IMG/VR virus record: IMGVR_UViG_3300048587_001100
Span: 1 to 52,940 of that record
Source of the DNA: a virus
Lineage: Duplodnaviria; Caudoviricetes
Length of the DNA stretch: 52,940 bases
Direction: 5' to 3' (one strand)
Part shown: positions 1-46,631 of the stretch, piece after piece
Numbering within the stretch: position 1 is the stretch's first letter
Layout of the letters: the number at the start of each line of letters is the position of its first letter
Translations under genes and position numbers: made by a program
The notes under the pieces: generated by a model
Seen by the model: only the letters and a program-made list of their open reading frames with translations
Told to the model about the DNA's origin: nothing
Database searches by the model: none

Positions 1-2097
1 TCAGGCCTCAGTCGTCTTTGTCTGAGGCTCATCAGGGGTAGCCAAAAGAGAACGATCGACTTGACCCATGGAATCGCTCGGAGGGGTTGCGTCGGCCAAC
101 GACCCCATGACACACCCTGCGTCACCGTTCGCAGCAGCAATCTCGGATGTGGACGCCTTAACTGATTCGAGCCCAGCAAACATCACCGGGGCCTCAATGG
201 GCCTGCTCAATACCTCCGTGACTTCGGGGTCGGGCTGTGGCTCCACGGACGAGAGCTTGCGATGCAGATTGAACGTTCGTCCATGGGCACGACGTAGGAT
301 TGTGTTGTAATCGAGGGGTGTGATCTTTATGTTTGTGCCTATTGCCGTCTCAATGGCGGTGCGTCCAACGGTGCTGCCTAATACATACACCGCGAATTCA
401 GTGTCCTTCATCACCGCGTTGCCGGCTTGAAGCTCGAGCGGATAGCGTTGCCCCTGAACAACCTCGTCATGCGTCAATTGAGAGCCCCCGCGCTTTAGCT
501 CGATTACGAGGACTTTTCTGACTCCGATGACCTCTCCATCCTCGAACTGGTCGGCAGCGTAGACGCTCACTGAGCGATCAGGCAGGACCACGAAATCAGC
601 CCTACGAACACTCAGTTCGGCATCTGTTCCACCTAAAAGTTGGCCGACCGTTGTCGCCATCTGCCTGTTTGAGGTGAACTCGACGGAATCATACTCCGGG
701 CCGAAGATCCATAGTCCCCGCCCAAACAGCGGTTGAAGTTGGTGAAGCTCGTCCGTCTTCCTGTCGTTTACGAGTTCCTGGAGCTCAGCAATCAGATCAA
801 GGCGTCGTTTCAGTTCGGAAAGGACCACCTCCGCAGCGGAGGCAGTCCATTGTTCCATGATCTGGTTCCATGTATCGAGGTCTTCGGGTGACGCGGCGGC
901 GAGCTTGTGCAGGAGGTCGTAGCCGGTCCGAGCCTTCTCCATTTTCGTGAAGACGTCGACGGTCTTTGTCAACTCAGCATCAGTGAGTAGCGGGCAACTG
1001 CGCTGCACTTGGTCGACAAAATCACCGATGGCCCGTTGAGAAATGCGCGGGAGTTCCTCTAGGGCCTGCCGCTGCTGACTGAGGGCCTCAATCTTCCTCT
1101 CGCGTCTGGAGTCTGCGAGAATGCCATCGAGTTCCCTCGTTACGTGGTCGTGGACTGCATGTTGAACGGCTATGCTTCTGTGGCTCTCGTAGAAGCCCGT
1201 CCAATCGGGTTTCACATCTAGCTTTAGAACATCGGCCTCGACGATGAAACTGTATCGTTTTGCGGCTTGGGTGCGGCCATCGAGGATGGCACCGCGCTCG
1301 CTAAATCCTTCCCACGATGGCTGACCGACCATCTTTTTATTCACCCACCAAGTGACGCCACGCAACTTGATCGTCCGATCTTGGGATGGCGCATCAATGC
1401 GGTGGACGACAATGTTGCCAATATCCGGTACCGTCACCGCCTTCGAAGTTGCATAATGCAAGCCGATGAGTTGCAGCGGTTTCTTGTTGAAGGTCACTGA
1501 GAACGATGGGTCAACAATGAACTTTGAGCCTATCGCATCCACCAACGTCTCCTCTGCAAGGAGGTGACGTCGAACGGATCCAAAGACTCTGGTGCCGTGC
1601 CCGGGCTTGGCACTAGATTCGATCTGGGTAAAACGGAACGGAGCGTGGTGGTCACTGGTCAGATCAACGCGGGCAGTTATGCTCTTGCCCTCGCGCCACG
1701 TTTCTACATGGTACACGCTGTCGAAGCAGAAGGCAGAATGTCGACCCTTACCACTTTGGCCGAAGGCGGTGCGGGTTCCTTTGGCCCGATTGCCTTTCGG
1801 GATTTCGACCCGCGATCCTTGTTCGGCCAGCCGATTGTAAGAGAGGGTCCGCCAACGGCGTGCGAATTGATCTGGTGTCATGCCTTCGCCGTTGTCGCGG
1901 ACCTCGAAAGCTCCTCCATGTTCGGCTGGCCATTGAACGTGGACATCGGTGGCACCCGCGTCATAAGCATTGGCGACGAGCTCTACAATAGCGATTTTGG
2001 GATCACTGATCAGTTGGCCAGCGTGATCGGCCATGAAGTGCTGGCCGAACGCGAACGAGTCGTCTGAAAACAATCCCGTTTTCTGCTTCTCCGTCAC
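1..2097 (-). CDS. GHKL (HSP90/MORC-like) ATPase fused to a C-terminal PD-(D/E)XK nuclease-like domain; candidate defence protein
   Basis: GHKL motifs ELVANAYDA (N box), DNGEGM (G1), FGQSGKG (G2), HGT (G3). C-terminal RADFVV...VLVIELKRGG...QRY fits a restriction-endonuclease-like D...ExK. Visibly more AT-rich than the phage genes. Confidence 0.75.
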   Translation of the reverse strand: MTEKQKTGLFSDDSFAFGQHFMADHAGQLISDPKIAIVELVANAYDAGATDVHVQWPAEHGGAFEVRDNGEGMTPDQFARRWRTLSYNRLAEQGSRVEIPKGNRAKGTRTAFGQSGKGRHSAFCFDSVYHVETWREGKSITARVDLTSDHHAPFRFTQIESSAKPGHGTRVFGSVRRHLLAEETLVDAIGSKFIVDPSFSVTFNKKPLQLIGLHYATSKAVTVPDIGNIVVHRIDAPSQDRTIKLRGVTWWVNKKMVGQPSWEGFSERGAILDGRTQAAKRYSFIVEADVLKLDVKPDWTGFYESHRSIAVQHAVHDHVTRELDGILADSRRERKIEALSQQRQALEELPRISQRAIGDFVDQVQRSCPLLTDAELTKTVDVFTKMEKARTGYDLLHKLAAASPEDLDTWNQIMEQWTASAAEVVLSELKRRLDLIAELQELVNDRKTDELHQLQPLFGRGLWIFGPEYDSVEFTSNRQMATTVGQLLGGTDAELSVRRADFVVLPDRSVSVYAADQFEDGEVIGVRKVLVIELKRGGSQLTHDEVVQGQRYPLELQAGNAVMKDTEFAVYVLGSTVGRTAIETAIGTNIKITPLDYNTILRRAHGRTFNLHRKLSSVEPQPDPEVTEVLSRPIEAPVMFAGLESVKASTSEIAAANGDAGCVMGSLADATPPSDSMGQVDRSLLATPDEPQTKTTEA

Positions 2098-8314: not shown

Positions 8315-9574
8315 TCAGGTGCCGGGGGCCATCTCCAGCACGGCGACGGCCTTGGCATCGGTGAGGCGACCATCGGCACGCTGGGCGATGTAGAAGCCCA
8401 CCTGACGCCGGGTGGCGTAGGCCTCCTCCAGACGACGGACGAACGGGTTGGCCACGAAGCGGACGCGGTAGCGGCTGAAGTCGCCGAAGGCGATGGGCTT
8501 CTTGCCCGCCGCGATGTCATCCATGGCGGGGTTGACCACGTAGTCGTAGCCCAGCACCTGGTTGGGTGACCCGGCACTTCCGGGGGTGAAGATGTAGCGG
8601 TTGTCGCCGTCCTTGAGCTTGCGGATGGCGGCCAAGGTCTGATCGTTGAACTGCCAGCGGCCACCCCGGCGACGGTACGGGGCCGGCACCGAGTGCAGCA
8701 GGTCCAGCAGTTCGTCGTAGGTGATGGCGGTGGCTGATGCGGCGTCCTTGCCGACCGTGGCACCGGTCACGAAGCCCTGGGGCTGGCCGGTGCCGCTGCC
8801 CAGGGTGGTCCGCTTGTTCAGCTTCGCGCCGATACGCTCAGACGCCAGCGCCAGAATCTCAGCGGCGAGATCCACCTCGCTGTCTTGGAGCAGCTCGATC
8901 GGCACGAGCACGACACCGCTGTCGTAGGTGAATGCGCCGAGTTCCTTGTTGCCGAAGTCGGGATCGACATCATCGTCAGCTGGGGCGTTCTCGGCCTGCT
9001 CGTCGCTGCCTTCGTTCGCGGTGTCATCCACGGTCAGCATGCTCATGGGGTTGCCGGTGGCGGTGGTGATGACCCGAGCGCCCGCATCGAGCACGCCCGT
9101 GAAATCACGCAGCGACTTCACCAACTCATTGGAGAAATCGCGGGTGCCGACGACACCGATGCCGGCGGTGGTCAGGGCCCGCTGTTCATCGCCTTCGATG
9201 GGCAGGTGTCCGGTGACCAGGAGACTGCGCTGCTCGGCGTCCAGGCCGGACATGCCGCCCCGCAGGTAGGCGTCAAAGGCCTGGTTGCGGCGCTCGTTCA
9301 GGCGCTGCCGATCGGTTTGCTGTCCGCTGCGGCCGTCCACATCTTCACGGCCGGGCTGCCGCTGGCGCTGCTCGCCCTCCAGCGCCACCATCTGCTCGTA
9401 GCGATCGACCTGGGCCTTGATCGCCTCGGCGCGGGTGTTCAGGTCGTCGAACTTGGCGGACTCTTCGGCGGTGAGGTCGCGCTTGTCGGTCTCCGCCGCC
9501 ACCAGGATGCCCCGCATCTCACGCAGCACGTCGCCGCGTTGCTCGTTCAGTCGCTTGATCTGTTGCCAACTCAT
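8315..9574 (-). CDS. Major capsid protein, HK97 family
   Basis: N-terminal coiled-coil delta domain; GSGTGQPQG, IRKLKDGDNRYIF, IAFGDFS, RADG. Confidence 0.92.
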   Translation of the reverse strand: MSWQQIKRLNEQRGDVLREMRGILVAAETDKRDLTAEESAKFDDLNTRAEAIKAQVDRYEQMVALEGEQRQRQPGREDVDGRSGQQTDRQRLNERRNQAFDAYLRGGMSGLDAEQRSLLVTGHLPIEGDEQRALTTAGIGVVGTRDFSNELVKSLRDFTGVLDAGARVITTATGNPMSMLTVDDTANEGSDEQAENAPADDDVDPDFGNKELGAFTYDSGVVLVPIELLQDSEVDLAAEILALASERIGAKLNKRTTLGSGTGQPQGFVTGATVGKDAASATAITYDELLDLLHSVPAPYRRRGGRWQFNDQTLAAIRKLKDGDNRYIFTPGSAGSPNQVLGYDYVVNPAMDDIAAGKKPIAFGDFSRYRVRFVANPFVRRLEEAYATRRQVGFYIAQRADGRLTDAKAVAVLEMAPGT

Positions 9575-9688
9575 TTGGTTGCTCTTTCGCTTGCTGTTGC
9601 TGTTCAAAGGACGCCAACACTTGGCGTCTCACTCATGGCCCCCGACTGGTCCGCGACAGCGCCGCAGGTCGGATAGTGGCCGGTCTGT

Positions 9689-10340: not shown

Positions 10341-11861
10341 TCAGCAGGTCAGGGCGCGGACAATCTGCTCAGCCCGGCCCGACCCCCACTGGGCCAGCAG
10401 TGCATCCATGGTGCCAGTCTCAAAAGCCTCCACGACGGCGGCACGGGCGTCCTCGCAATGGATGGCTGGGTAATCGTGTCGGTTCAACGGGGCGGCCAGA
10501 ACCTGCTCCACGTGGCCGGCATGGTCGGTGAACCACTCATCCGCCCAGCGCCGGAACCCGGCGGCATCGCCTGCGTGCTTCCTGGCGGCGCGGGCGACGG
10601 CGTTGATTTCTTTCGTGGTGATGGTCCTGGCGGCGTTGAGCAGCAGGGCGCGGGCGGGCTCGTCGTTGCGCTGGGATGCGGGGGCGCTGTTGAGCGGGCT
10701 GAGCACCTCATCCCCGCCGGTGATTGGCGGCAAGCCCTCCAGCTTGCGGGCTTCGTTCACGGTCATGAAGGGCCCGCCGACGGCGGTCTGGTGGGCGGCG
10801 TACCGATCGCGCAGGCTGGCCCGCACCAGGGCGTCGAGGTTGAACCGGATTTGCAGACGCTGCCGCTCGTCCTCGCGCAACAGCTTGCGGTTCAACTCCT
10901 GCTCAATCTTGATCGCCCAGGGCTGGATGGTCTCGGTCCTGAACTCTTCCGTTGCGTGCTCGACATTGTTGTAATGCGCCTGGTCATACAGCCCCAGCTT
11001 GTGGGGTGGGCAGCGGTAGATACCGGCGATCTCCAGCGTCTGGTGCTTTCGACTTTCCAAGGCCTGGGCCTCTTCTGGCGACACACCCATGCGGTGGACC
11101 TTGAGACCCGGCGCGGCGGCGACCTTATGGGCGCCGCCCAGACCGGTGTATTCGGCGCGCCACTTTTCCATGAAGAGGTTGAATGACTCGCGGCTCATGG
11201 GTGGCAGTTCCACCACGGAGCCGATGTTGCAGCCATTTGCGAAGAACCTCGCTGAGAACTGCTCCAGGGCGACCGAGAGCCCGATGGTGTTTCGTGCGAC
11301 TTGGATCGGCGACAGGCCGACGATGCCGTCGAGGGTCACGTTGGGGGTGTGGATGATGTCCTGCGGCCTGAGCGCCTGCCCCGTGCCCGCCAGCCCGGTC
11401 TGGTAGAGCAGGTCGCCGTTGCGGCGCAGGGGTGCGGTAGAGCCGGCCCGGAGCGGGTACAGGCCGATGGGGGTGTAGGTGTCGTCACGCTCAATGAAGG
11501 CGTAGCCGTTGCCCCACAGCAGGAGGTTCATCGCGAAGGCCTCCACGAACACCGCCGGGGTCATGTACGGGTTGGGTGAATCGAGCAGCGCCCGCACCGG
11601 GTGGTCATAGACCTTGCCCCCGTCGCGGCGGTCGATGATGTGGATCGGCAACGAGGCCAGGGCGTTGGCGATGACCGTCACGCAGGAGTACACCGCACGA
11701 CAGGCGAGGGCTGACTCGTGCGTGATGTTGACGCCCGCATCCGAGGGGCCCGCGACGTAGGGCCCGAACAGGGTCAACGGCGACAGCAGCAGATCGCCGC
11801 TGCGGTGCTCGACCGGGGCGGGTGGTGCGGAGCGACGAAATAGACTGGCAATGAATCCCAT
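10341..11861 (-). CDS. Portal protein, HK97 family
   Basis: AVYSCVTVIA, LLLWGNGY, GLSPIQ, IAGIYRCPPH, MTVNEAR; about 100 extra C-terminal residues. Confidence 0.92.
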   Translation of the reverse strand: MGFIASLFRRSAPPAPVEHRSGDLLLSPLTLFGPYVAGPSDAGVNITHESALACRAVYSCVTVIANALASLPIHIIDRRDGGKVYDHPVRALLDSPNPYMTPAVFVEAFAMNLLLWGNGYAFIERDDTYTPIGLYPLRAGSTAPLRRNGDLLYQTGLAGTGQALRPQDIIHTPNVTLDGIVGLSPIQVARNTIGLSVALEQFSARFFANGCNIGSVVELPPMSRESFNLFMEKWRAEYTGLGGAHKVAAAPGLKVHRMGVSPEEAQALESRKHQTLEIAGIYRCPPHKLGLYDQAHYNNVEHATEEFRTETIQPWAIKIEQELNRKLLREDERQRLQIRFNLDALVRASLRDRYAAHQTAVGGPFMTVNEARKLEGLPPITGGDEVLSPLNSAPASQRNDEPARALLLNAARTITTKEINAVARAARKHAGDAAGFRRWADEWFTDHAGHVEQVLAAPLNRHDYPAIHCEDARAAVVEAFETGTMDALLAQWGSGRAEQIVRALTC

Positions 11862-11882: not shown

Positions 11883-13565
11883 TCACACGAACGCGAACGG
11901 GAAATCTTGATAAAAGGTCGGCTCGTCATCCCTGGCCGCGCGGATGTCGTTGCCCAGGGCGAAGCTCAGGGCGTCGATTCCGTCAATCTTGCGTGTGTCC
12001 TTGGGTTTCACCGTCTTGATGAGCCCGTCCGCGTCCTCGTGGACCTCCACGTTGGAGGCCATCCAATTCAAGATTGGGTGATTGCCGTGCCGCAATCGAC
12101 GCTCCAGCACCAGCCGCTCCAGGTGCCGCAGGACTGGATTGGTCATCGTGCGGCGTTGCCAAAACTCAAAGACCGTGAAGCCGTCGCCCTGCAACTGACT
12201 GGCGATCTGCTGAGCAAATTTCGGGTCATAAGCCAGCTCCGTGATCCTGTAACGCTGGCCCAGTTCCACGATGCGCCGGCGGATGTGGTCATAGTCGATG
12301 TAGTCGCCGGGGGTGGTTTCGAGGTAACCATCCTGGACCCACTGGCGATAGGGCACGCCGGCTTTCTTCTCATGGTCCAGCACCGTGTCGGCAGGGATCC
12401 AAAAATACGGCAGCACATCGCGGGTGCCGTCCACGTTGGGGAAGACGAGCACCAGGGCGGTGACGTCGTTGGTGCCCGACAGGTCCAGCCCCGCCCAGCA
12501 CTCCCGCCCCTCGTAGTCGGCGGGGTCGATGTCGGCGGCACACTCGAGCCACCGATCGAAGGGCAGCCATTGCGAGATGCTGCCCACCCATTGGTTCAGG
12601 CGGAACCGGCGGAAGTTGTTTTGCAGGGTAGGTGAGTCTTTGGCCTTCATCGCTTCGGCGCGAACCTCATCCTCCATGATGGTCACGCCCAGTGACGGAT
12701 TCGCGGCACGCCATGCGGCGGGGTCGGTGATGTCGCAGCCGTCCGGTGCGGCGGCGATGCAGGCGAACGTGTAGGGGTCGTCAATGGCACCGCTGATGAT
12801 CTTGGCGGCCCGGTCGTGCAGTTCCCACCCGATGGAGTCGCGGTCCTCGCCGGCGGTCGTGATGGTCATGGTGAGCGGCTGACGACGGGCGGCACCAGCA
12901 TATTGGAGGGTGTTCCAAAGCTGGCGGCTCCGGCCCTTCAAGCGGTGGGCTTCGTCGATGACGATGCCGCTGGCGTTCACGCCGTCGGCGCTGTCACCGT
13001 CACTGGAAAGAGCCTGATAGAAGCCCGACGTGCGATGGACCACCAGGCGCTTGGTGTGCTCCTTGATGTCGATGAGTCGCTGGAGTGCCGGCGACTTGCG
13101 GACCATCTTGGCGGCTTCCTGGAAGATGATGCCCGCCTGGGTGCGGGTGGTGGCGGCGCTGTAGAGCTGGGGCTCGGGCTCACCATCGGCGATGAGCAGG
13201 TAGAGCGTGATCGCGGCGGCGAGGGTGGATTTGGAATTCTTTTTGGCCACCTCGATGTAAGCCTGCCTGAACCGACGCGAACCATCCGCCCGACGCCAGC
13301 CGAAGATGTGACCACACACCTCGCGTTGCCAGGGCATGAGCCTCATGGGGATGGTGCCCGCCGCGTCGGCCTCGGGCGTGGGATGGCTGGGTGCGATGCG
13401 GATGAACCGCTCGCAGAACTGGGCGAACCGATCGGCGGCGGCCTGGTCGAAGTAGCAGCCCGCCAGCAAGGCGCTGTGGTCGATGCGGCCACGCACCCAG
13501 TGCGCCCAGCCTTCGCGACGGGCGCGGGCGAGCGCGGCCTCGAGTTGTCCGGCAGGTGCGATCAT
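11883..13565 (-). CDS. Terminase large subunit
   Basis: LMPWQ adenine motif, Walker A AKKNSKST, Walker B IVIDEAH, ITTAG, nuclease GLDLS...KIDGID. Confidence 0.92.
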   Translation of the reverse strand: MIAPAGQLEAALARARREGWAHWVRGRIDHSALLAGCYFDQAAADRFAQFCERFIRIAPSHPTPEADAAGTIPMRLMPWQREVCGHIFGWRRADGSRRFRQAYIEVAKKNSKSTLAAAITLYLLIADGEPEPQLYSAATTRTQAGIIFQEAAKMVRKSPALQRLIDIKEHTKRLVVHRTSGFYQALSSDGDSADGVNASGIVIDEAHRLKGRSRQLWNTLQYAGAARRQPLTMTITTAGEDRDSIGWELHDRAAKIISGAIDDPYTFACIAAAPDGCDITDPAAWRAANPSLGVTIMEDEVRAEAMKAKDSPTLQNNFRRFRLNQWVGSISQWLPFDRWLECAADIDPADYEGRECWAGLDLSGTNDVTALVLVFPNVDGTRDVLPYFWIPADTVLDHEKKAGVPYRQWVQDGYLETTPGDYIDYDHIRRRIVELGQRYRITELAYDPKFAQQIASQLQGDGFTVFEFWQRRTMTNPVLRHLERLVLERRLRHGNHPILNWMASNVEVHEDADGLIKTVKPKDTRKIDGIDALSFALGNDIRAARDDEPTFYQDFPFAFV

Positions 13566-23218: not shown

Positions 23219-24577
23219 TCATCTGAACTGCTGGCCCAGCCACGCCACCGCCTTGTCGAGAAGGCCCTGATCACCCCTCGTGTAGTGCCGTTCGGCGATT
23301 GTGGTTGGTGCGTGGCCGAGATAGAGCGTCACCACGGCCTTGAAGCCATTCTCTTGCTCCAGCAGGTTGGCCCCTGTCGCGCGCAAGAGTTTGAAGCTCC
23401 CATCGATCCGCACATGCTTATGTTCGGCCTCGCCATTCACCAATTTGTTGACCTTTTCCAGGAGCCGGCGGAAGGCTAGCCGTACCGTGTCCACCTTGGC
23501 AGGGGAGCCATCATCACCAGTCCATTCCCGCACCAGTGGCTCACCATTCTCGGTCAGCAGCGCCAAGTCGCCGCTCGTCTGGGCAAACGTTTTCAATAGC
23601 TTCTTTGTGGCGGGCCAAAGCTGATACGTGACAACCGGCACGCCGGCATGCTTGTGCGTCTTGGATCTCTTCCGGGTGATGGTGCCCGCCTTAATGTCCA
23701 CCTCATCACGCCGGAGGTCTGCCAGATCGCGCTGTGTCATGCCGCAATTCAGAGCGAGCAGGAGATAGAGCCGCATCCGATCCGAGGCGGCATCGAGTAG
23801 CCGCTGAACCTCGTCAATCTCCCAGACGTCGACAGTCTTGGCTGGGACGGTAAAGGTCAGATTGCGGCTGTCGATGTTCCGAGGCAAGCCACACAACTCG
23901 CGCTCCCAAGCCCAGCGGATGAACTGCCGCACCGCACCCAGGGCATCACGAGCGGTGTAGGCACTGATTGCCTTGTCAGCGAGTTGATTTGAAAGCCCGT
24001 CATGGAACTCGGCCAACATGGCGGCGCATATCTCGCTGATGGGGCGGTCGCCCGTGGTACTGCCCTGATCAGGTCGCCAATCACGGAAGCGGTAGAGGTG
24101 TGCCCGCAATGCCGAGCGGCGGGCATGGCTGCGGTCGTCAAGTTTGACCTTCGTGTCGAATCCCGACAGAAACCGCTCGATGTGGGCCTTGATCGTCTGT
24201 GGGCCATCGCTACCCGGCAGCCGGAAGTCAGGATGGTCCTGTACGCCGTGGCTGATCACGATCGCTTCGGCCAGGAGGCGTTGCACCCTGTTGGTCGGGT
24301 CTTGACGAGCACCTTCGACGGCTTCGAGAGCGTCGGCATGCTCATCGCGAATCTTGTCCAGCCGGTTACGCTCGGCTTGTTGATCCTGTTTCGCTTGGCG
24401 GGTGACAAGCTGTCCCTCAATCCGTTCCCAGTCCCGCAGGGCTTCTTCATATGCCTCTCTGTCGGTCTTGTTGACACCGCTGCGGCCGAGGTAAAAGTAG
24501 CGGTCTTTGCCGTCAATCTTCCTTTTCTTGCGCCACTGTCGGCGGGCCTTGTGGTAGGTGAGTTGGACTTGGGTCAT
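23219..24577 (-). CDS. int: Tyrosine recombinase/integrase (element 1)
   Basis: N-terminal arm-binding-like WRKK...YFYLG; LLLALNCGMT, RSKT, FKLLRAT, YLGH, RHY; adjacent to a tRNA att remnant. Confidence 0.88.
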   Translation of the reverse strand: MTQVQLTYHKARRQWRKKRKIDGKDRYFYLGRSGVNKTDREAYEEALRDWERIEGQLVTRQAKQDQQAERNRLDKIRDEHADALEAVEGARQDPTNRVQRLLAEAIVISHGVQDHPDFRLPGSDGPQTIKAHIERFLSGFDTKVKLDDRSHARRSALRAHLYRFRDWRPDQGSTTGDRPISEICAAMLAEFHDGLSNQLADKAISAYTARDALGAVRQFIRWAWERELCGLPRNIDSRNLTFTVPAKTVDVWEIDEVQRLLDAASDRMRLYLLLALNCGMTQRDLADLRRDEVDIKAGTITRKRSKTHKHAGVPVVTYQLWPATKKLLKTFAQTSGDLALLTENGEPLVREWTGDDGSPAKVDTVRLAFRRLLEKVNKLVNGEAEHKHVRIDGSFKLLRATGANLLEQENGFKAVVTLYLGHAPTTIAERHYTRGDQGLLDKAVAWLGQQFR

Positions 24578-24588
24578 GTGAGACCTCC

Positions 24589-24700
24589 TGTACCCCCTCC
24601 AGCAGGCGGCTTTTCTGTACCCCCTGCGGGACGAAGAGGTCTATCTTGTACCCCCTCGTGTACCCCCGGTAAAGCGGAAAGTCGGCAAAAAAGGGGTACA
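24589..24700. repeat. Integrase arm-type binding sites TGTACCCC (four direct, one inverted)
   Basis: TGTACCCCCT at 24589, 24616 and 24647; TGTACCCCCG at 24659; inverted AAGGGGTACA at 24691. Confidence 0.8.
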
Positions 24701-24734
24701 AAACCTCGTTTTTGGCTCAAAAAACGGGGTTGCA

Positions 24735-24781
24735 TTCGTTCGGGACGAAGAGGCCGCAGGTTCAAATCCTGTCACCCCGAC
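24735..24781 (+). pseudogene. 3' fragment of tRNA-Pro(CGG); attachment site (attR-like for element 1, also the junction of element 2)
   Basis: Anticodon arm TTCG-TTCGGGA-CGAA, T arm GCAGG-TTCAAAT-CCTGT, acceptor 3' strand CACCCCG-A-C; no D arm upstream. Confidence 0.9.
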
Positions 24782-26267
24782 TTTGCTTCAAAATAGGCCC
24801 TTCGGCGAGCACGTCGAAGGGCTTTCTCTTTTCAGTGACAAGACTTGTGGCGAACAATGTCTTGTTCAATAAAATCGCGTCCAATAGCGCACGGCGATCG
24901 TCTTTGTTTGAAACGCGCCATCGATCTGCCGCTTCCTGGGCCAAATCGAACGCCTTTACTGCCTGTTCAATTCCAGCCAGTGGCTTGGCCTTGCTGGTCT
25001 GCAACTCGGCGTCCACTCGCTCCATCTCCTGCTTGTGGAGCGTCGTCTTGGCCGTGAGCGTGTTTTTATCCACAGCCCCGGCCAGGTAGGCGTCCAACAG
25101 CCGCTGCTGCATCGACTCCAGGTCGGCCCGTCGCCGGCGGAGGTTCTTGATCCGGTCTTCTCGCAGCCGGACGTCGTCCTTGCAGGAGTCCACCAGCTTG
25201 CTGCGGAACCAAGCCCGGTCCTCTTCGTTGCTGATCCGCAGCGACTGCAGGTCGGTCAGGATGGCCTCTTCCAGTTGTTCTTCGCGCCAGCGGACCGTTG
25301 GGTGGTCCTTGTCGGGGTAGACGCTGGCACAGCGGTAGTAGACGTATTGGCGTTGGACGCCCCTCTTGTTGGCCCGGCGAACGCGTTCGGCGGTGATGCC
25401 GAAGCCACAGTGGCCGCAGACGAACATGTTGGCCGCCAGGTAGTGGTTGACCTTGTTGGTGCGGCGGTTCTTGCGTTTCAGGAGGCGCTGGCAGTGCTCG
25501 TAGGTGGCCTTGTCGACGATTGGCTCGTGCTTGCCCACGAAGTACTCGCCGCGGAACTGGACCAGGCCGGTGTAGTACGGGTTGTTGAGGATGTACGAGA
25601 CGGCGTTGCGGTGGAACCGGGGCTGGCTGGAGCGGTAGACGAAGCCTTCTCGCTCCATCTGGTCGCCGACCTGCTCGAAGGTCATGGTACCCGTGGCGTA
25701 CAACTCGAAGATGCGCCGCACCGCCGTTGTCTTCTCCGGGTGCGGCTGGACCGGTTGGTCGCGGTCGCTGGGCACGTTCATGTAGCCGTAGGCGGCCAGC
25801 CCGGGTGTCCAGCCCTGGCGGACGCGCTCCTCGATGCCCTTGAGCACCTCCTGGCGGAGGTTGTCCGAGTAGTACTGGGCGACGGCGGCCATGATGTTGA
25901 ACGACAGGGCGCCGGCGGCACCGGGCCCGAACTGGTTCTCCACGAAGGCCAGCTTGATGCCGTGGTTGTCCTCGAGCTCCTGCATGCGGACGGCGTCGCG
26001 CATGTTGCGGCAGATGCGGTCGAGCTTGTGGGCCAGGATGATGGCGATCTTGTGCTTGCGGGCGTTGGCGACGACCCACTTGAGCATCTGATTGAACACG
26101 ACGCGTTCAGCGCCGCGCTTAGCCGACTCGGCCACCACGAACTCGCGGACGACGTCCCATTGCTCGCGCTGGGCTTTCTCGCGAGTGATGCGGAGCTGGG
26201 CGTCGATCGAGTAGCCTTCCCGCTGCTCGCGCGACGATACCCGTGCCCAGATGACGCAGTTGGTCAT
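24762..26267 (-). CDS. Large serine recombinase (integrase of element 2)
   Basis: Catalytic WARVSS, KLDRICR; recombinase domain ILNNPYYTG...GKHEPIV; Zn ribbon CGHCG...YYRC; coiled coil; likely start ATG 26267. Confidence 0.92.
   Translation of the reverse strand: MTNCVIWARVSSREQREGYSIDAQLRITREKAQREQWDVVREFVVAESAKRGAERVVFNQMLKWVVANARKHKIAIILAHKLDRICRNMRDAVRMQELEDNHGIKLAFVENQFGPGAAGALSFNIMAAVAQYYSDNLRQEVLKGIEERVRQGWTPGLAAYGYMNVPSDRDQPVQPHPEKTTAVRRIFELYATGTMTFEQVGDQMEREGFVYRSSQPRFHRNAVSYILNNPYYTGLVQFRGEYFVGKHEPIVDKATYEHCQRLLKRKNRRTNKVNHYLAANMFVCGHCGFGITAERVRRANKRGVQRQYVYYRCASVYPDKDHPTVRWREEQLEEAILTDLQSLRISNEEDRAWFRSKLVDSCKDDVRLREDRIKNLRRRRADLESMQQRLLDAYLAGAVDKNTLTAKTTLHKQEMERVDAELQTSKAKPLAGIEQAVKAFDLAQEAADRWRVSNKDDRRALLDAILLNKTLFATSLVTEKRKPFDVLAEGPILKQSRGDRI
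24797..24832 (+). terminator. Terminator-like hairpin downstream of the tRNA 3' end, inside the recombinase CDS (antisense)
   Basis: GCCCTTCGGCG-AGCA-CGTCGAAGGGC followed by TTTCTCTTTT. Confidence 0.7.
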
Positions 26268-26530
26268 GGGTTCTGGCCTCCTTTCCAAAGCACCTGTGCC
26301 AATCGCTTGACGTTCATGAGAATCTCCACGGCCTCGGCGTCGGACAGGTCGCGTCCGTAGCGTGGCGACCAGTGTCGCCGCGTGTCCTGGACCATCGCCT
26401 CGGTGATCCATGCCGCCCCGGGCACGTTGCGGGCGGCTGCGGCGGTGGCGGACGGGACCGGCACCGGGGGCCGGTCACACCCTTGCTCATTCACCAACAC
26501 ATGTCCAGTCGAATCTTGGCCCGTTCGCAT
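26264..26530 (-). CDS. Small protein coupled to the serine recombinase (candidate directionality factor)
   Basis: AAGGAG SD; WITEAMVQDTRRHWSPRYGRDLSDAEAVEILMNV; ATGA overlap with the recombinase start. Confidence 0.7.
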   Translation of the reverse strand: MRTGQDSTGHVLVNEQGCDRPPVPVPSATAAAARNVPGAAWITEAMVQDTRRHWSPRYGRDLSDAEAVEILMNVKRLAQVLWKGGQNP

Positions 26531-39859: not shown

Positions 39860-40111
39860 ATGTCTGAGAAGACCCCCAAGATTCCGGCCAACCCAGGCGC
39901 TCAGAGCGCGGGTGTCACGCCGCCGGTGGTCAATCCCATGTCGCTTTCCGTAGAGGAAGTGTCACGGATGCTGTCGGCCGCTGGCGGCAAGCGGATCACG
40001 CCACAGCAGGTCCAGGCGGACCTTGATGCCGGGGCGCCCGTGGGACCTGACGGTCGCATCAACTTGGTGAACTACACGGCATGGCTGGTGAGGGAGGTCC
40101 AGGCCCGTTGA
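39860..40111 (+). CDS. Putative terminase small subunit-like HTH protein
   Basis: GGAGG SD; immediately upstream of and coupled to the large terminase; DGRINLVNYTAWL. Confidence 0.6.
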   Translation: MSEKTPKIPANPGAQSAGVTPPVVNPMSLSVEEVSRMLSAAGGKRITPQQVQADLDAGAPVGPDGRINLVNYTAWLVREVQAR

Positions 40112-42408
40112 AGTTTGACCCACGCCAACTTCGTGTCGCTGAACTCGTGCGGCTCCTGAACGCCACGCCGCTGGGCGAGGTGGTGCAGCCGCATGTGGTC
40201 TACCGGCATCTGAACCGTGCCGCCTACAAGATCGGTGACGGCCGTCGCATCGACCTGGTGCGGTACGCCGCGTGGCTGTTCCACGCTCGCCAGGAGCTGT
40301 TCGAGCCGGGTTGGACGGAGGGCGATCCGGCCAACTACGCCCGGCACAAGGAATCGGTCAATGCACGTGGCCGCGCGATGAGCGAATCGTCGCGCGACAT
40401 CTCTGCTGAAGGCTGGGTCCACGCGCCGGTCAATCCAGCCCGCAAGGACTCCTGCCGCCAGAGTTTCCGGGGGTTCTGTGAGCAGTACTTTCCGCAGACG
40501 TTTCATTTGCCCTGGTCGCAAGACCACCTGACGGTCATCGCGAAGATCGAGCATGCGGTGCTGGAAGGCGGACTCTTCGCCATGGCCATGCCTCGTGGCA
40601 GCGGCAAGACAAGCCTCTGCGAGACAGCATGCCTGTGGGCATTGCTTTACGGCCATCGTGAGTTCGTGGCGCTCATCGGCAGCGACGAAGAACACGCCGC
40701 CGACATGCTCGATTCGATCAAGAGCGAGCTTGAGAACAACGACCTGCTCGATGAGGACTTCGCGGAAGTGACGGGCCCGATCCGCGCCTTGGAGGGGATT
40801 CATCAACGTGCTACGGGTCAGCTCTACCGCGGCGCTCGCACCCATGTGGGCTGGACGGCGCGGGAGATCATCTTGCCCACGATCGAAGCATCGGCCGCGG
40901 CAGGCGGGATCATCAAGGTCGCGGGCATCACTGGTCGCATCCGCGGCATGAAGCACAAACGCGCCGATGGCAAGACGACGCGTCCGTCGTTGGTGCTACT
41001 CGATGATCCGCAGACCGACGAATCAGCGCGGTCGCCGGCCCAGTGCGCCACGCGCGAGCAGATCCTCTCCGGCGCGATTCTGGGTCTTGCCGGACCTGGT
41101 CGCAAGATCGCGGGGCTGATGACGCTCACCGTGGTTCGGCCCGATGACATGGCGGACCGCATCCTGGACCGGGAGAAACACCCGCAGTGGCAGGGGCAGC
41201 GCACCAAGATGGTCTACCAGTTCCCGGCCGCGGGAAGTGACGGTGAAAAACTGTGGGCTCGCTACGCCCAACTGCGGGCCGAAGGCCAGCGGAACGATCG
41301 CGGCACCCAAGAGGCGACCAACTTCTACCGTGATCATCGGGTCGAGATGGACACCGGCGTCGTGGTGGCCTGGCCGCAGCGCTACAACCCCGATGAACTG
41401 AGCGCCATCCAGCACGCGATGAACCTCAAGCTCGACCACGGCGAAGCCGCCTTTTGGGCCGAATACCAGAACGAGCCCCCGGAAGTGGACCAGGGCGACG
41501 ACGTTCTCGATCCGCAGGTCATCGCCGCCAAGACCAACGGGATGAAGCGGGGCGAGGTGCCCATGGGCGTCAATCACCTGACGATGTTCATCGACGTTCA
41601 GGGAACGGCATTGTTCTGGATGACCTGCGGCTGGGAAGAGGATTTCACGGGCTACGTGCTGGACTACGGGACCTACCCCGATCAGAAGCGGGGGTACTTC
41701 ACGCTGCGCGACATTCGCCGCACGTTGCTTTCGGTTCACCCGGGCAGCGGTGCCGAGGGCAGCATCTACGCCGGGCTGCAGACGCTGCTCGAGCAACGTC
41801 TCACGCGGCGATGGCGACGTGACGACGGGGCGGAGATGGCGATCGATCGCTGCCTGATCGACGCCAACTGGGGCAACTCCACGGACGTGGTGTACCAGTT
41901 CTGCCGGCAGAGCCCACACGTCGCGGTTCTCATGCCCAGCCATGGCCGCTACGTGGGCGCGTCGAGCGTTCCGTTCGCCGACTACAAGCCCAAGCGGGGC
42001 GATCGTGTCGGCCTGCATTGGCGCGTGCCCAACGTCCAGGGACGCCGGGCGGTGCGCTATGCCCTCATCGATACGAACTACTGGAAGAGTTTTGTGCACG
42101 CCCGGCTGAGCGTCCCTATGGGCGATACGGGTTGTTTGTCGCTGTTCATGCCGGGCAGTGGAAGCGATCACCGTTTGTTGTCGGAGCACCTGACCGCGGA
42201 GTACCGGGTGCGGACGGAGGGCCGGGGTCGGCAGATCGATGAGTGGAAGCTTCGCACCCCCGGCAGAGACAACCACTGGCTGGACTGCCTGGTGGGCTGT
42301 GCGGTGGGCGCCAGCATGCAGGGCTGCGTGGTGTTCGGGACCGACACCAAGCGCGACCTGCACCGGCCACGCCTCAAGCTCTCGGCTCTGCAGAGGAGGA
42401 AGCGATGA
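40108..42408 (+). CDS. Terminase large subunit (GpA-type)
   Basis: MPRGSGKT, LVLLDDPQ, MFIDVQ, DNHWLDC; TTG start overlapping the upstream stop. Confidence 0.9.
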   Translation: MKFDPRQLRVAELVRLLNATPLGEVVQPHVVYRHLNRAAYKIGDGRRIDLVRYAAWLFHARQELFEPGWTEGDPANYARHKESVNARGRAMSESSRDISAEGWVHAPVNPARKDSCRQSFRGFCEQYFPQTFHLPWSQDHLTVIAKIEHAVLEGGLFAMAMPRGSGKTSLCETACLWALLYGHREFVALIGSDEEHAADMLDSIKSELENNDLLDEDFAEVTGPIRALEGIHQRATGQLYRGARTHVGWTAREIILPTIEASAAAGGIIKVAGITGRIRGMKHKRADGKTTRPSLVLLDDPQTDESARSPAQCATREQILSGAILGLAGPGRKIAGLMTLTVVRPDDMADRILDREKHPQWQGQRTKMVYQFPAAGSDGEKLWARYAQLRAEGQRNDRGTQEATNFYRDHRVEMDTGVVVAWPQRYNPDELSAIQHAMNLKLDHGEAAFWAEYQNEPPEVDQGDDVLDPQVIAAKTNGMKRGEVPMGVNHLTMFIDVQGTALFWMTCGWEEDFTGYVLDYGTYPDQKRGYFTLRDIRRTLLSVHPGSGAEGSIYAGLQTLLEQRLTRRWRRDDGAEMAIDRCLIDANWGNSTDVVYQFCRQSPHVAVLMPSHGRYVGASSVPFADYKPKRGDRVGLHWRVPNVQGRRAVRYALIDTNYWKSFVHARLSVPMGDTGCLSLFMPGSGSDHRLLSEHLTAEYRVRTEGRGRQIDEWKLRTPGRDNHWLDCLVGCAVGASMQGCVVFGTDTKRDLHRPRLKLSALQRRKR

Positions 42409-42933: not shown

Positions 42934-43130
42934 TGTCCGAACCACTGGACGAGGCGATCAAGCAGAACGCTCAGGGCCCCAAGCGGGCCAAGGGCGATAG
43001 CTCCGAGATGGAGCAGCACTCGCTGCAGGACCAGATCGCCGCTGACCGCTACCTCGCCAGCAAGGGCGCCACCAAGCGCAAGGGCTTGGGGGCCATCTTC
43101 AAGAAGCTCATCCCGCCGGGAACCGTTTGA
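42933..43130 (+). CDS. Head-completion protein (lambda gpW position)
   Basis: 65 aa directly before the portal; GPKRAKGD...EQHSL.DQIAADRYL. Confidence 0.75.
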   Translation: MSEPLDEAIKQNAQGPKRAKGDSSEMEQHSLQDQIAADRYLASKGATKRKGLGAIFKKLIPPGTV

Positions 43131-44638
43131 TGTTTCGTTGGCTGCGCAACCTCGCTTCGACCACTCAACCCCAGCGGGCCCCGCGCCCGTCGGGTGTTGC
43201 GGGATTGCGGATTGTGCGTGCCGGTTCCACTCGGTCGCTCAAGGCGCGTTACGACGCGGCCGTGACCAACAGCGACAACCGCCGTCACTGGTCCAACGCC
43301 GACGGCCTTTCCGCCAACGCCGCCAACAGCCCCGAGGTGCGGCGCGTGCTGCGCAACCGGGCGCGATACGAGGTGGCGAACAACTCGTATGCCCGCGGCA
43401 TCGTGCTGACCCTGGCCAACGATGTGATCGGCACCGGGCCGCGGCTGCAGATGCTGACCCCCGACCCCACGGCGAATCGCACCGTTGAACTGGCATTTGC
43501 CGAATGGTCCGACGCCGTGGGGCTTGCCTCCAAACTCCGGACGATGCGCATGGCTCGCGCTGACTCCGGTGAAGCATTCGGCATCCTGACCAGCAACCCC
43601 GGTGTGTCATCGCCTGTGCAACTGGACCTGCGGCTGGTCGAGGCGGACCAAGTCGCCTCGCCGCTGGGATTGGCACGTCTGGGACAGCCGGTAGACGGCA
43701 TCGTGTTCGATCGCTTCGGCAACCCGGTCGAGTACCACGTCCTGCGTCAGCACCCCGGTGACGGCGCCTCGCTGTCCCGATCGGCCGCCGACTTCGACCG
43801 CATCCCCGCACCGGGGGTGCTGCACTATTTCCGGGGGGATCGGCCTGGGCAGGCGCGGGGCATCCCCGACATCACGCCTGCTCTACCCCTGTTCGCGCAA
43901 CTGCGGCGCTACACGCTGGCGGTGATCGCCGCGGCCGAGACTGCCGCCGACTTCGCGGCTGTGCTCTACACCGACGCGCCGGCCAACGGCGAAGCCGACC
44001 CCGTCGAGCCGATGGACCTGGTCGAACTCGAGCACCGCATGGCCACCGTGCTGCCCGGCGGTTGGAAGCTGGGCCAGGTGACGGCCGAGCAGCCGGCGAC
44101 CACGTATGGGGAGTTCAAGCGCGAGATCCTCAACGAGATCGCCCGCTGCCTGAACATGCCCTACAACATCGCCGCAGGCAATTCCTCGGGCTACAACTAC
44201 GCCTCCGGACGGCTCGATCACCAGACCTACTACAAAGCCATTCGCGTCGAGCAGCACCACCTGCAGACCACGGTGCTGGACCGCCTCCTGCGGGCCTGGC
44301 TGGACGAGGCCACGCTGGTGGAGGGCCTGCTGCCGCAGTCGATGCGGACCCGCGACGCCGGCGCCCTGCACTTCGCCCACACCTGGTTCTGGGACGGCCA
44401 CGAGCATGTGGACCCGGCCAAGGAGGCCAGCGCTCAGGCCACGCGCCTGTCGAACCACACCACGACCCTGGCCGTCGAGTACGCCCGCCAAGGACGTGAC
44501 TGGGAAGAGCAGTTGCGTCAGCGTGCCGCCGAGGTGGCGCTCATGCGCGAGCTCGGCCTGAGCCTGGCCGATGCGCAACCCCAAGTCGATCCCAATGAGG
44601 AGGAGGACTCCGATGTCCCGACCCGTCAAGCCGCTTGA
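43130..44638 (+). CDS. Portal protein, lambda family
   Basis: YDAA, LRNRARYE..NN, RPGQARGIP, NYASGR, HVDPAKE. Confidence 0.92.
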   Translation: MFRWLRNLASTTQPQRAPRPSGVAGLRIVRAGSTRSLKARYDAAVTNSDNRRHWSNADGLSANAANSPEVRRVLRNRARYEVANNSYARGIVLTLANDVIGTGPRLQMLTPDPTANRTVELAFAEWSDAVGLASKLRTMRMARADSGEAFGILTSNPGVSSPVQLDLRLVEADQVASPLGLARLGQPVDGIVFDRFGNPVEYHVLRQHPGDGASLSRSAADFDRIPAPGVLHYFRGDRPGQARGIPDITPALPLFAQLRRYTLAVIAAAETAADFAAVLYTDAPANGEADPVEPMDLVELEHRMATVLPGGWKLGQVTAEQPATTYGEFKREILNEIARCLNMPYNIAAGNSSGYNYASGRLDHQTYYKAIRVEQHHLQTTVLDRLLRAWLDEATLVEGLLPQSMRTRDAGALHFAHTWFWDGHEHVDPAKEASAQATRLSNHTTTLAVEYARQGRDWEEQLRQRAAEVALMRELGLSLADAQPQVDPNEEEDSDVPTRQAA

Positions 44639-46631
44639 TGATGCCCAGCGCACCCTGGCCTTGTCGGCCGAAGCTCGCATCGAGTTGGAAGCCGGCGGCG
44701 ATGGTGCCGATGCCCAGCCCCGCATCCCGCGCTTCCGCATGGTGGCGTACACCGGCGTGCCCATGCGCATTGCCGCCTGGCGATACCCGGTGATCGTGGA
44801 TTTGGCGGGCCTGCACATCCCGTCGCAGGCCCGGCCGATCCGGTTCAGCCACGACCCCGGCGCCGGCATCGGCCATACCGACAGCATCCGCATCGAGTCC
44901 GGCCAGCTCGTCGCCACCGGCCTGGTCTCGCGTGACACGGCCATTGCCCGCGAGATCGTCGCCTCGGCCAAGAACGGATTCCCGTGGCAGGCCTCCATCG
45001 GCAGCAGCGTGGAAGAGTTCGAGTTCGTCAAGGACGGGCAGAACGTCCTGGTCAACGGCCAGAGCTTCAAGGGTCCGCTCAACGTGGTGCGGAAGGCCAC
45101 GCTGGGCGAGATCAGCTTCGTGGACCTGGGCGCCGACGGCGCCACCACCGCCAGCATCGCCGCGCAACAGCGGCAGGAGTCTACTGACATGAGCGTTGCC
45201 AACGACAACAGCAAGGTTCAGGACCAAGTTACCGCTGCCGCGGCTGACCCTGCAAGGGTGGAGGCCGCCGCCCCTGTGACCGCCACGACTGACGATCCCG
45301 TTGCCCAGATGCGTACCCAAGCGGCTGCCGAGTCGGCCCGCATCGCCGCGGTGCGGAAGCTGTGCGTCAAGCACCCCGACGTGGAAGCCACGGCCATCGC
45401 CGAAGGCTGGGACATCAACCGCACCGAACTGGAGGTGCTGCGTGCGTCGCGTCCGGCGGTGCCGCACATGATCACCGGCGCCTCGACCGCCAGCGCGATG
45501 AACGGCGGCGCCACCAGCCAGATGCTGGAGGCGGCCTGCATGCTCACGGCCGGCCTGGGCAACCTCGACAAGCTGTTCGACGAGCAGACGCTGGACGCCG
45601 CGTCGAAGCGGTTCCGCGGCGGGATCGGGCTGCAGGAACTGCTGCTCGAAGCGGCCTGGGCCAACGGCTACAGCGGCCGCAACTTCCGCGATAACCGATC
45701 CGTGCTGCGCTTCGCCTTCGGCCACGACATTGCCGCTGCTGCGTCCACCATCGACATCGGCGGCATCCTGTCCAACGTGGCCAACAAATTCCTGCTGGAG
45801 GGTTTCTTCAGCGTCGAGCGCACCTGGCGGAACATCACCGCCGTCCGCAATGTGTCCGACTTCAAGACCGTGACCAGCTACCGGCTGATCGGCAAGGACC
45901 AGTACGAGAAGGTGCTGCCCGGCGGCGAGCTCAAGCACGGCACGCTGGGCGAGCAGAGCTACAGCAACAAGGCCGACACCTACGGCCTGCTGCTGAGCAT
46001 CGACCGCCGCGACGTGATCAACGATGACCTCGGAGCCATCACCACCGGGCCCCGGAAGCTGGGGCGGGGTTCGGGCCTGAAGATCAACGACGTCTTCTGG
46101 GCCGAGTTTCTCGCGAACTCGAACTTCTTCAAGACCGCCAACAAGAACTACCTCGAGGGCGCCGACACTGCCCTGGGCATCGACGGCCTGACCAAGGCAG
46201 AGGTGGCGTTCCTGGACCAGGTCGATCCCGACGGCAAGCCGATCGGCGTCATGCCCGCGATCGTCTTGGTGCCCACGGCGCTCAGCGCCATCGGCACGCA
46301 GCTCTACAAGTCGTTGGAGCTGCGAGAGACCACCAGCAACGCCAAGTACCCGGTGGCCAACCCGCACCAGGGCAAGTTCCGCGTCGAGGTCAGCCGCTAC
46401 CTGGCCAACGCGCTCTACACCGGCAACTCGGCGAAGGCCTGGTACCTGCTGGCCGACCCCAACGACCTGCCCGTGATCGAGGTGGCGTTCCTCAATGGCC
46501 AGGAGTCGCCCACCATCGAAACCGCCGAGGCGGATTTCAATGTGCTGGGCGTGCAGATGCGGGGCTACCACGACTTCGGTGTGGCCCTGCAGGAACCCCG
46601 AGGTGGCGTGAAGGCCAAGGGCGAAGCGTAA
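44613..46631 (+). CDS. Prohead protease-scaffold-major capsid fusion (Mu gpT-like capsid)
   Basis: Protease AYTG...H...WQASIG...EISFV.LGAD; capsid VSDFK, GELKHG, AFLNGQESP, HDFG. Confidence 0.88.
   Translation: MSRPVKPLDDAQRTLALSAEARIELEAGGDGADAQPRIPRFRMVAYTGVPMRIAAWRYPVIVDLAGLHIPSQARPIRFSHDPGAGIGHTDSIRIESGQLVATGLVSRDTAIAREIVASAKNGFPWQASIGSSVEEFEFVKDGQNVLVNGQSFKGPLNVVRKATLGEISFVDLGADGATTASIAAQQRQESTDMSVANDNSKVQDQVTAAAADPARVEAAAPVTATTDDPVAQMRTQAAAESARIAAVRKLCVKHPDVEATAIAEGWDINRTELEVLRASRPAVPHMITGASTASAMNGGATSQMLEAACMLTAGLGNLDKLFDEQTLDAASKRFRGGIGLQELLLEAAWANGYSGRNFRDNRSVLRFAFGHDIAAAASTIDIGGILSNVANKFLLEGFFSVERTWRNITAVRNVSDFKTVTSYRLIGKDQYEKVLPGGELKHGTLGEQSYSNKADTYGLLLSIDRRDVINDDLGAITTGPRKLGRGSGLKINDVFWAEFLANSNFFKTANKNYLEGADTALGIDGLTKAEVAFLDQVDPDGKPIGVMPAIVLVPTALSAIGTQLYKSLELRETTSNAKYPVANPHQGKFRVEVSRYLANALYTGNSAKAWYLLADPNDLPVIEVAFLNGQESPTIETAEADFNVLGVQMRGYHDFGVALQEPRGGVKAKGEA

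Follow-up and report, generated by a model that had tools for sequence, protein, structure and literature searches.

How can the gene of a phage recombinase share its last codons with a transfer RNA (tRNA), and what becomes of the protein, the tRNA and their transcription when the phage integrates? This question is raised by a serine integrase gene in the IMG/VR virus record IMGVR_UViG_3300048587_001100 (Duplodnaviria; Caudoviricetes), of which the whole stretch analysed, 52,940 nucleotides (nt) from position 1, is called the window here. On the minus strand the gene runs into the antisense of the 3' part of a tRNA-Pro, and on the plus strand a hairpin with a U-rich tract lies shortly beyond the tRNA end. 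We regard it as highly probable that positions 24735-24832 are the integrase-proximal attachment site (attL) of a prophage that a large serine integrase placed at the very 3' end of a tRNA-Pro gene of the host, where the prophage supplies a substitute terminator and exchanges the tail of its own integrase. The features are listed in Table 1.

According to this explanation, strand exchange would take place within TCG (24778-24780), and the mature tRNA sequence would stay unchanged because the exchange falls in the last two acceptor bases and the discriminator. Integration would cut the tRNA off from its own trailer and terminator, and the phage would bring a substitute terminator, i.e., a hairpin and U tract lying opposite the integrase codons E-K-R-K-P-F-D-x-x-A-E/K-G/R. 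Because the phage attachment site (attP) lies within the integrase open reading frame (ORF), the integrase of the prophage would close with ..SR followed by four codons and a stop (GDRI-stop) that the antisense strand of the tRNA acceptor and T arm contributes, and in the excised phage the frame would stay open for another 15-48 codons within the other phage arm. At a later time, a second prophage, unrelated to the first and equipped with a tyrosine integrase, would have entered the same tRNA at the anticodon arm.

The serine integrase and its presumably tRNA-derived end

The protein contains the catalytic resolvase domain with its conserved Ser (PF00239, Resolvase, 2.7e-21), the recombinase domain (PF07508, Recombinase, 1.3e-14) and the zinc ribbon (PF13408, Zn_ribbon_recom, 4e-08), and in an AlphaFold model a long helical hairpin extends between residues 330 and 466. 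By this domain content, together with the att-site geometry of its relatives, it is classed as a large serine integrase. The mechanical ORF (24762-26411, minus strand) is longer upstream, and the Met common to homologues lies at 26265-26267. Among 8000 candidates scored, 1091 homologues were found at E<=1e-3, and those with names are planctomycete. The best 120 share 54-83% identity and are mostly 499-502 amino acids (aa) long; WARVSSREQ is invariant in the homologue alignments, and the tail KRKPFDVxAEGxxLKxSRGD[RW]I is kept down to 54% identity (alignment of 32). A scan of viral contigs for close relatives with the serine integrase sequence alone gave no match, and an alignment-based scan was then used.

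In the window the ORF terminates with ...KRKPFDVLAEGPILKQSRGDRI-TGA (in a longer stretch, ...EKRKPFDVLAEGPILKQSRGDRI-TGA). The stop TGA is the complement of TCA at 24762-24764, within GGTTCAAATCC (24759-24769), and the last codons G-D-R-I are the antisense of the T stem and the acceptor 3' strand, so that the sequence agrees with the original prediction, made from the window alone, that RGDRI-stop is the antisense of the tRNA acceptor and T arm with TGA opposite the T-loop TCA. The same prediction had protein, att site, tRNA and terminator overlapping here; this layout is present, but the tRNA is not whole. The fragment comprises the anticodon arm (anticodon 24741-24743), the variable loop, the T arm, the acceptor 3' strand and the discriminator, and lacks the 5' acceptor strand and the D arm. 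ARAGORN found 0 tRNAs in the whole window, and Rfam at its gathering threshold found no tRNA in the window; the Rfam tRNA model, run in E-value mode, aligned to 24725-24780 without a D arm and reached 19.4 bits, against a cut-off of 29. Contigs with tRNA-Pro genes from other organisms align only to about 24735-24784 of the window. A complete cloverleaf is thus missing from the window and present at the loci of 65 relatives (see below). Only the 3' 46 nt of the tRNA would be left beside the serine integrase because the second prophage entered the same tRNA.

Just to the left of the fragment, CGGGGTTG (24725-24732) is able to pair with the acceptor 3' strand, and because of this pairing a D-armless cloverleaf appears in the fold and in the Rfam alignment. 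The pairing is probably due to chance in the arm of the left phage, or CGGGGTTG may be a tRNA-like attP arm of that phage.

Integrase 3' ends in related loci

The set of related loci consisted of 80 from species-representative genomes, where 227 stretches had matched, and 55 from viral contigs; 130 of them gave a tblastn match. After 14 loci that stop short of the integrase 3' end, 25 contigs ending within 60 nt and one distant relative were left out, 90 informative loci remained, all of which extend 60 nt or more past the 3' end. In 65 of these 90 loci the integrase 3' end overlaps, in the same register, an intact tRNA on the opposite strand (64 tRNA-Pro, i.e., 31 CGG, 17 TGG and 16 GGG, and one tRNA-Gln); 11 show a tRNA 3' fragment alone, and 14 another kind of tail. 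Two more loci with a shorter alignment overlap tRNA-Gln and tRNA-Val. Four codons follow the Arg codon in 50 loci and 16 codons in 13 loci, and the 16-codon tails continue through the tRNA antisense beyond the T loop (..SRGDRIRTCDLL..).

The wider serine-integrase clade comprises 4151 clusters at E<=1e-30. Of its 150 best 50%-identity representatives, 108 have at least 470 aa, and a signature of T-loop antisense (e.g., ..DSNP.., ..IRT.., ..FEP.., ..xxI-end) was present in the last 35 residues of 52 of these 108, compared to 1/108 and 3/108 in control windows. A relative with 24% identity (L131) has a partial antisense tRNA (20.9 bits) beneath its tail (L131:9619-9679). Judged by these sequences, integrase genes running into a tRNA may be common in the wider clade.

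Many contigs stop at most 60 nt past the integrase Arg codon (9 of 80 genome contigs and 16 of 50 viral records, including L006, L007, L015, L034, L054, L061 and L073). In metagenome-assembled genomes (MAGs) the assembly may have broken at such an end in the presence of both integrated and excised forms or of several copies of tRNA-Pro; in viral records it is a consequence of trimming at the tRNA.

The crossover site

The inferred core (24778-24780) consists of the last two acceptor-stem bases and the discriminator A, and falls in the Ser-Arg codons, with four codons left before the prophage stop. The junctions available for placing the crossover are those of two relatives with both attL and attR, one empty bacterial site (attB) and twelve attP-type junctions. 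The attP-type locus L123 has a long integrase tail and no tRNA; compared with the attL-type locus L005, which abuts a tRNA-Pro, it shows 91% identity over 3.8 kb, the match ending about 4 nt into the tRNA, and past that point it shows 87% identity over 4.6 kb to the far prophage end in the MAG of L005. L123 unites both phage arms and is therefore an attP-type junction. In the complete genome of Planctomicrobium sp. SH661 (G001), a search with a 40-residue tail revealed an orphan extension copy (98% identity) on the same strand as the integrase and 68 kb from it, with an open frame of only 64 aa. Its homology to the attP-type locus begins exactly at AGTCGG, in frame, and the common core in G001 is AGTCGGGA, which includes TCG. 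No 13-22-nt repeat of the tRNA end was found around the G001 prophage on the expected strand within 100 kb, consistent with the short core of serine-type recombination.

The second attL/attR pair is from a MAG (G007), in which the host flank holds a strong native hairpin with T runs, and a relative (G011) provides the empty site, where a flank as in G007 abuts the same tRNA-Pro(CGG). TCG is the only sequence common to attL, attR, attP-type and attB in this set. The att sites of the relatives are therefore simple, with a short core and no long identity between attP and attB.

The half-sites show a further regularity. GAAC was found at +14 after the Arg codon in 64 of 65 tRNA-side half-sites, where it corresponds to the antisense of the T loop, and at +19 in 12 of 16 attP-type or attR half-sites. 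In serine-integrase attB sites, the motif for the zinc-ribbon domain lies 5 bp nearer to the centre than in attP (Rutherford et al., accessible text of PMC3783163), and the 5-bp shift of GAAC in the relatives matches this published half-site geometry. The original prediction had placed the att site within the integrase gene, and in the relatives the TCG core does lie inside the coding sequence. Its proposal to reconstruct attP from the other prophage end could be carried out in relatives, where the reconstructed frame runs on into a longer tail; the other prophage end of the window is beyond the window.

Further copies of the window site were sought in metagenomic data. An exact 59-nt pattern from the end of the window had no match in metagenome contigs, and a protein scan of such contigs yielded one close relative (L141, 82% aa identity), whose site is another attL, with tRNA-Pro(GGG) intact. 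Neither a joint nor an attP of the window phage came out of sequencing runs, the best run containing 0.32 of the sampled words; contigs from these runs were of relatives (e.g., a 7-kb contig with 58 differences over 24797-26500, ending in the hairpin) or carried tRNA-Pro genes of other organisms.

The overlap might be incidental, the fragment being the att site of the tyrosine-integrase prophage only and the serine integrase recombining elsewhere. The tyrosine integrase and its TGTACCCCC repeats do lie directly on the other side of the fragment, and serine integrases have mostly been reported in protein-coding genes (accessible text of PMC8092301). Against this, an intact tRNA occupies the same register in 65 of the 90 informative relatives, without a homologue of the window tyrosine integrase in loci L002-L136, the relatives furnish two attL/attR pairs, an empty attB and attP-type junctions, and the 5-bp motif shift also fits a serine-integrase site. 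We therefore consider an incidental overlap extremely improbable, an attP of this integrase family having been sought at the junctions described above only.

Side observations on the far arm and on tandem arrangements were made in the same loci. In the phage of the clade closest to the window, the far arm beside the attachment site (L123:12742-18243; also L140 [G007 C171]) encodes a radical SAM protein, a DUF6375 protein and, with more than 1400 aa, a NACHT/AAA-like protein; this group of genes may be a defence or accessory cassette. On the contig that holds L048 and L036, an attP-type junction with a full-length long integrase lies 63 kb upstream of a second integrase, which has 74% identity and abuts a tRNA-Pro.

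A terminator-like hairpin opposite integrase codons

On the tRNA-sense strand, an 11-bp helix is formed by 24796-24806 with 24813-24823 (two G.U pairs) and is followed by TTCTCTTTT (24824-24832), so that both a G+C-rich hairpin and a U tract are found, as in intrinsic terminators. The hairpin begins 15 nt past the last base of the tRNA (24780), and its antisense encodes E-K-R-K-P-F-D-V-L-A-E-G; these coordinates bear out the original description of an 11-bp hairpin and U-rich tract 15 nt after the tRNA end, formed by the KRKPFDVLAEG codons. The terminator-pattern scan alone was not significant (2 sites vs 1.5 expected), and the fold z-score is only -2.5.

The covariation of the helix is more telling. 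It was analysed in 105 distinct 75-nt homologous segments, aligned without gaps. On the tRNA-sense strand, pairing was retained in 99.0% of 1155 cells, compared to 91.4% in shuffles (0 of 500 reached the observed value), a control that overstates independence as the counts come from related sequences, and 21-54% in slid controls. Both sides had changed at 5 of the 11 pairs (for example, one pair is GC in 63 segments and CG in 38, and another is CG in 79, UA in 20 and UG in 6). G.U pairs account for 166 cells, and therefore only 85.1% of cells pair on the integrase-sense strand; this asymmetry (99.0% vs 85.1%) leads us to assign the selected structure to the tRNA-sense transcript. A nearly invariant T-rich run follows the helix on that strand only. 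Codon choice in the integrase is coupled accordingly: Pro CCG occurs with Arg CGG (61 segments), Pro CCC with Gly GGG (38), and Phe TTT with Lys AAA, i.e., amino-acid changes (E/K, G/R) offset synonymous changes of Pro and Phe codons in the helix. The synonymous-site constraint looked for in the homologues is thus visible as Pro and Phe codon choice tied to the paired residues.

The inverted repeat might instead be a protein site at the DNA level (part of attP or an operator) or a structure of the integrase mRNA. It lies 15-44 nt from the crossover, and its near arm may fall in the attP half-site. Yet pairing is kept while the sequence changes, as in the two pairs above, the helix is complete on the tRNA-sense strand only, through its G.U pairs, the T-rich run is confined to the same strand, and native attB flanks hold a hairpin of their own at the same place. 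We judge this alternative quite improbable. That the hairpin is a terminator of the tRNA strand, as had been proposed, is strongly supported by this covariation and strand asymmetry, and it presumably ends tRNA transcription.

About 70 bp would thus combine four overlapping functions, namely the tRNA end, the crossover site, C-terminal codons of the integrase and a terminator on the opposite strand. The base-pairing of the terminator would dictate integrase residues (E or K, G or R), a natural example of RNA structure constraining a protein, and the arrangement would show how a serine-integrase phage can use a tRNA gene without harm to the tRNA.

The long isoform and its extension

In the relatives, the excised (attP-type) integrase has 15-48 further codons and a different C-terminus. 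The suggestion that integrated and excised forms encode different C-termini therefore holds in the relatives, where attP does not restore an identical end, and the window's own phage would be expected to have such an extension as well. A representative search at 50% identity gained no more long isoforms, because the family collapses into few clusters at this identity. An AlphaFold2 model of the long isoform has a mean predicted local distance difference test score (pLDDT) of 75.5 with a confident core. The conserved residues P-[IL]-E-[LF] or F-E-P in the extensions are GAAC bases of the attP half-site read as codons.

What the tail exchange does is less clear than that it occurs. The recombination-driven switch of integrase stability or directionality that the original prediction put forward has at most two findings behind it, purifying selection on the extension and an excess of hydrophobic-Ala ends. 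The two isoforms might differ in activity or stability, a functional switch to which we give somewhat less than an even chance. More tentatively, integration may be a built-in isoform switch, in which the long tail would limit the lifetime of the enzyme or tune synapsis, and the tRNA-coded residues would give a possibly stable prophage enzyme poised for excision; the design may mark a large unrecognised clade of tRNA-targeting serine integrases. The competing possibility, which has a nearly even chance, is that the tail swap is a neutral by-product: the extension would be read-through without a role, both isoforms would act alike, and attP would lie in the integrase 3' end since the phage must carry the tRNA trailer and terminator beside the crossover.

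The ratio of nonsynonymous to synonymous polymorphism per site (pN/pS) speaks against neutrality, being 0.04-0.40 over the whole extension in each of the 9 pairs compared (two clades, with orphan attR copies among them), and by this measure the extension is under purifying selection. A stretch ..[IVL]-x-E-L-[MW].. recurs late in three otherwise dissimilar extensions. Ends of the hydrophobic-Ala type (..LAA, ..IAA, ..VA) were seen in 10 of 22 tails, or 5 of 15 lineages (grouped by eye), compared to a background of 4.2% among 1786 long ORFs in the same loci (binomial P 2.8e-4, for a pattern chosen post hoc after seeing the data), and it is suggested that the tail ends in a third of the lineages resemble an ssrA-type degron. 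On the neutral side, the first 8-9 extension codons overlap the attP half-site (GAAC at +19), and some of the conservation may be at the DNA level.

Several observations weigh against the attL reading or against a role of the exchanged tail. Neither attR nor attP of the window was recovered, and the right prophage runs past the window end. When 13 extension peptides were used in tblastn searches for an extension-like fragment in the window, only chance-level matches were obtained (best E about 0.03), and the isoform claim for the window phage rests on relatives that are 53-82% identical. Four of the 16 attP-type half-sites have no GAAC at +19, and the U tract of the window is broken by two C. 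Long host contigs hold some of the attP-type junctions (L048 and L036 on one contig; L029 on a 657-kb contig). These may be arm-to-arm joints of tandem prophages instead of free phage DNA; such an arrangement is not an expected direct product of serine integrases. As to the extensions, their 15-48 codons are about the chance length of an open frame in 65% G+C DNA, those from different clades are not alignable, and in the clade closest to the window they end in acidic residues. The extension has pLDDT values below 60 (below 50 for residues 493-505 and 519-545 of the long form) and neither a confident placement nor docking in the model. Chance length, lack of alignability and the AlphaFold result also count in favour of the neutral by-product.

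Comparison with known systems

The integrase has the same domains as the large serine integrases of Bxb1, phiC31 and the A118/LI type (resolvase, recombinase, and zinc ribbon with coiled coil), and shares with large serine integrases the very short common core (3-8 nt), simple att sites and the 5-bp half-site shift (accessible text of PMC3783163). Unlike the usual members, the target is the 3' end of a tRNA gene and not a protein-coding gene, and attP lies in the integrase's own ORF with an attP arm that encodes a terminator on the opposite strand. Serine integrases are usually reported in protein-coding genes (accessible text of PMC8092301), and the word 'tRNA' has 0 occurrences in the main text of a survey of large serine integrases (PMC10083194); a Paracoccus phage with a serine recombinase was reported at tRNA-Met (accessible text of PMC6536676). 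The accessible literature, as searched here, gave no account of a serine integrase gene that contains attP and is placed at the end of a tRNA.

In BPs-type mycobacteriophages, attP lies in an ORF, a stop is provided at attL, and the prophage product is 20-35 residues shorter, the viral forms often ending in ssrA-like ..AA degradation tags (accessible text of PMC3694055 and PMC8092301). As in BPs, integration alters the C-terminus; here 15-48 residues are lost before four tRNA-coded residues are added. In contrast to BPs, which have a tyrosine integrase and shorten the repressor gene, it is the serine integrase itself that is shortened. The system here is not known to have a link to immunity, and tag-like ends that may suggest degradation occur in only 5 of 15 lineages. 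The relatives thus share with the BPs type an attP in an ORF and a changed C-terminus, and differ from it in the repressor and degradation-tag features.

SSV1 integrates into a tRNA gene. In the SSV type, as here, the recombination site is inside the integrase ORF (accessible text of PMC7253208). Those integrases are tyrosine recombinases whose gene is split in two by integration, whereas the enzyme here is a serine integrase and only the C-terminal tail beyond the folded domains is exchanged, the catalytic and DNA-binding domains remaining intact; the splitting of a tyrosine recombinase gene that marks the SSV type was not found. What the tRNA locus would lose on integration is restored by the mobile element, as it is in tRNA genes occupied by tyrosine-integrase elements, the attP of which carries the 3' part of the tRNA. 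Unlike these elements, the serine-integrase phage restores 1-3 nt of the tRNA together with trailer and terminator, with no long identity block. The left prophage of the window resembles the ordinary tyrosine-integrase tRNA case, with its boundary at the anticodon arm.

Here, a recombinase that is itself altered by recombination would be open to testing. In genome engineering, where serine integrases are in wide use, a family that targets tRNAs and comes with mapped att sites and two natural isoforms could be of help, its targets (T arm and acceptor sequences of tRNAs) being highly conserved.

Two prophages back to back and neighbouring features

Although IMG/VR lists the window as a single 'provirus' record, rated 100% complete, it is chimeric: two unrelated prophages lie back to back, and a separate set of terminase, portal, capsid and integrase genes is found in each, the right one extending past the record end. 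The left prophage also has a C5 methylase gene, and the right one has, besides the serine integrase, genes for a helix-turn-helix (HTH) regulator, PDDEXK, AAA_24, a helicase and a primase-polymerase.

Table 1. Positions of features in the window (1-52,940)
Feature	Position	Strand	Basis
Left prophage or part of it	1-24734	-	domain matches
Capsid, left prophage	8315-9607	-	domain matches
Portal, left prophage	10341-11861	-	domain matches
HK97-type large terminase, left prophage	11883-13565	-	domain matches
Tyrosine integrase, left prophage	23219-24577	-	PF00589, E = 5e-10
TGTACCCCC repeats: four direct copies (starts 24589, 24616, 24647, 24659) and one inverted copy with one mismatch (24692-24700)	24589-24700		
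3' fragment of tRNA-Pro(CGG), 46 nt	24735-24780	+	ARAGORN, Rfam, tRNA-Pro contig matches
Large serine integrase, prophage (short) form, 501 aa	24762-26267	-	Pfam domains; start set by homologue alignment
Integrase part, putatively host (tRNA) derived: last base of Arg codon, Gly-Asp-Arg-Ile, stop TGA	24762-24777	-	attP-type/attL-type homology ends here
Inferred crossover core, CGA on plus strand, TCG in integrase sense	24778-24780		shared by all G007 site types
Right prophage, runs off the window	24781-52940	+	domain matches
Phage-borne tRNA trailer, 15 nt	24781-24795	+	antisense encodes part of ..PILKQS; variable across family
Intrinsic-terminator-like element	24796-24832	+	fold, terminator-pattern scan, covariation, strand asymmetry
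gpA-type terminase, right prophage	40081-42408		domain matches
lambda-type portal, right prophage	43127-44638		domain matches
Capsid, right prophage	44571-46631		domain matches

All four exact copies of TGTACCCCC in the window fall between the tyrosine integrase gene and the tRNA fragment, and these repeats look like candidate arm-type sites of the left prophage. This anatomy suggests that the anticodon arm of the same tRNA was the entry point of the tyrosine-integrase phage, which would have displaced the rest of tRNA-Pro and probably arrived after the serine-integrase prophage. The att site of the left prophage was deduced from anatomy alone because no relatives of its tyrosine integrase were found, neither in viral contigs nor in loci L002-L136. 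One of the relatives with a tRNA fragment only was checked (L090), and it has a tyrosine integrase with an arm-binding domain just past the fragment.

At the left end of the window (1-2097, minus strand), an ORF with a HATPase_c_3 domain runs off the end in a stretch of low G+C content (0.56), and it could be a defence-type gene at the end of the left phage, or host DNA. In four related loci (L003, L085, L086 and L115), an unusually long tRNA-Met(CAT) call (78-93 nt, complementary strand) lies within the prophage, about 5.4 kb upstream of the integrase end.

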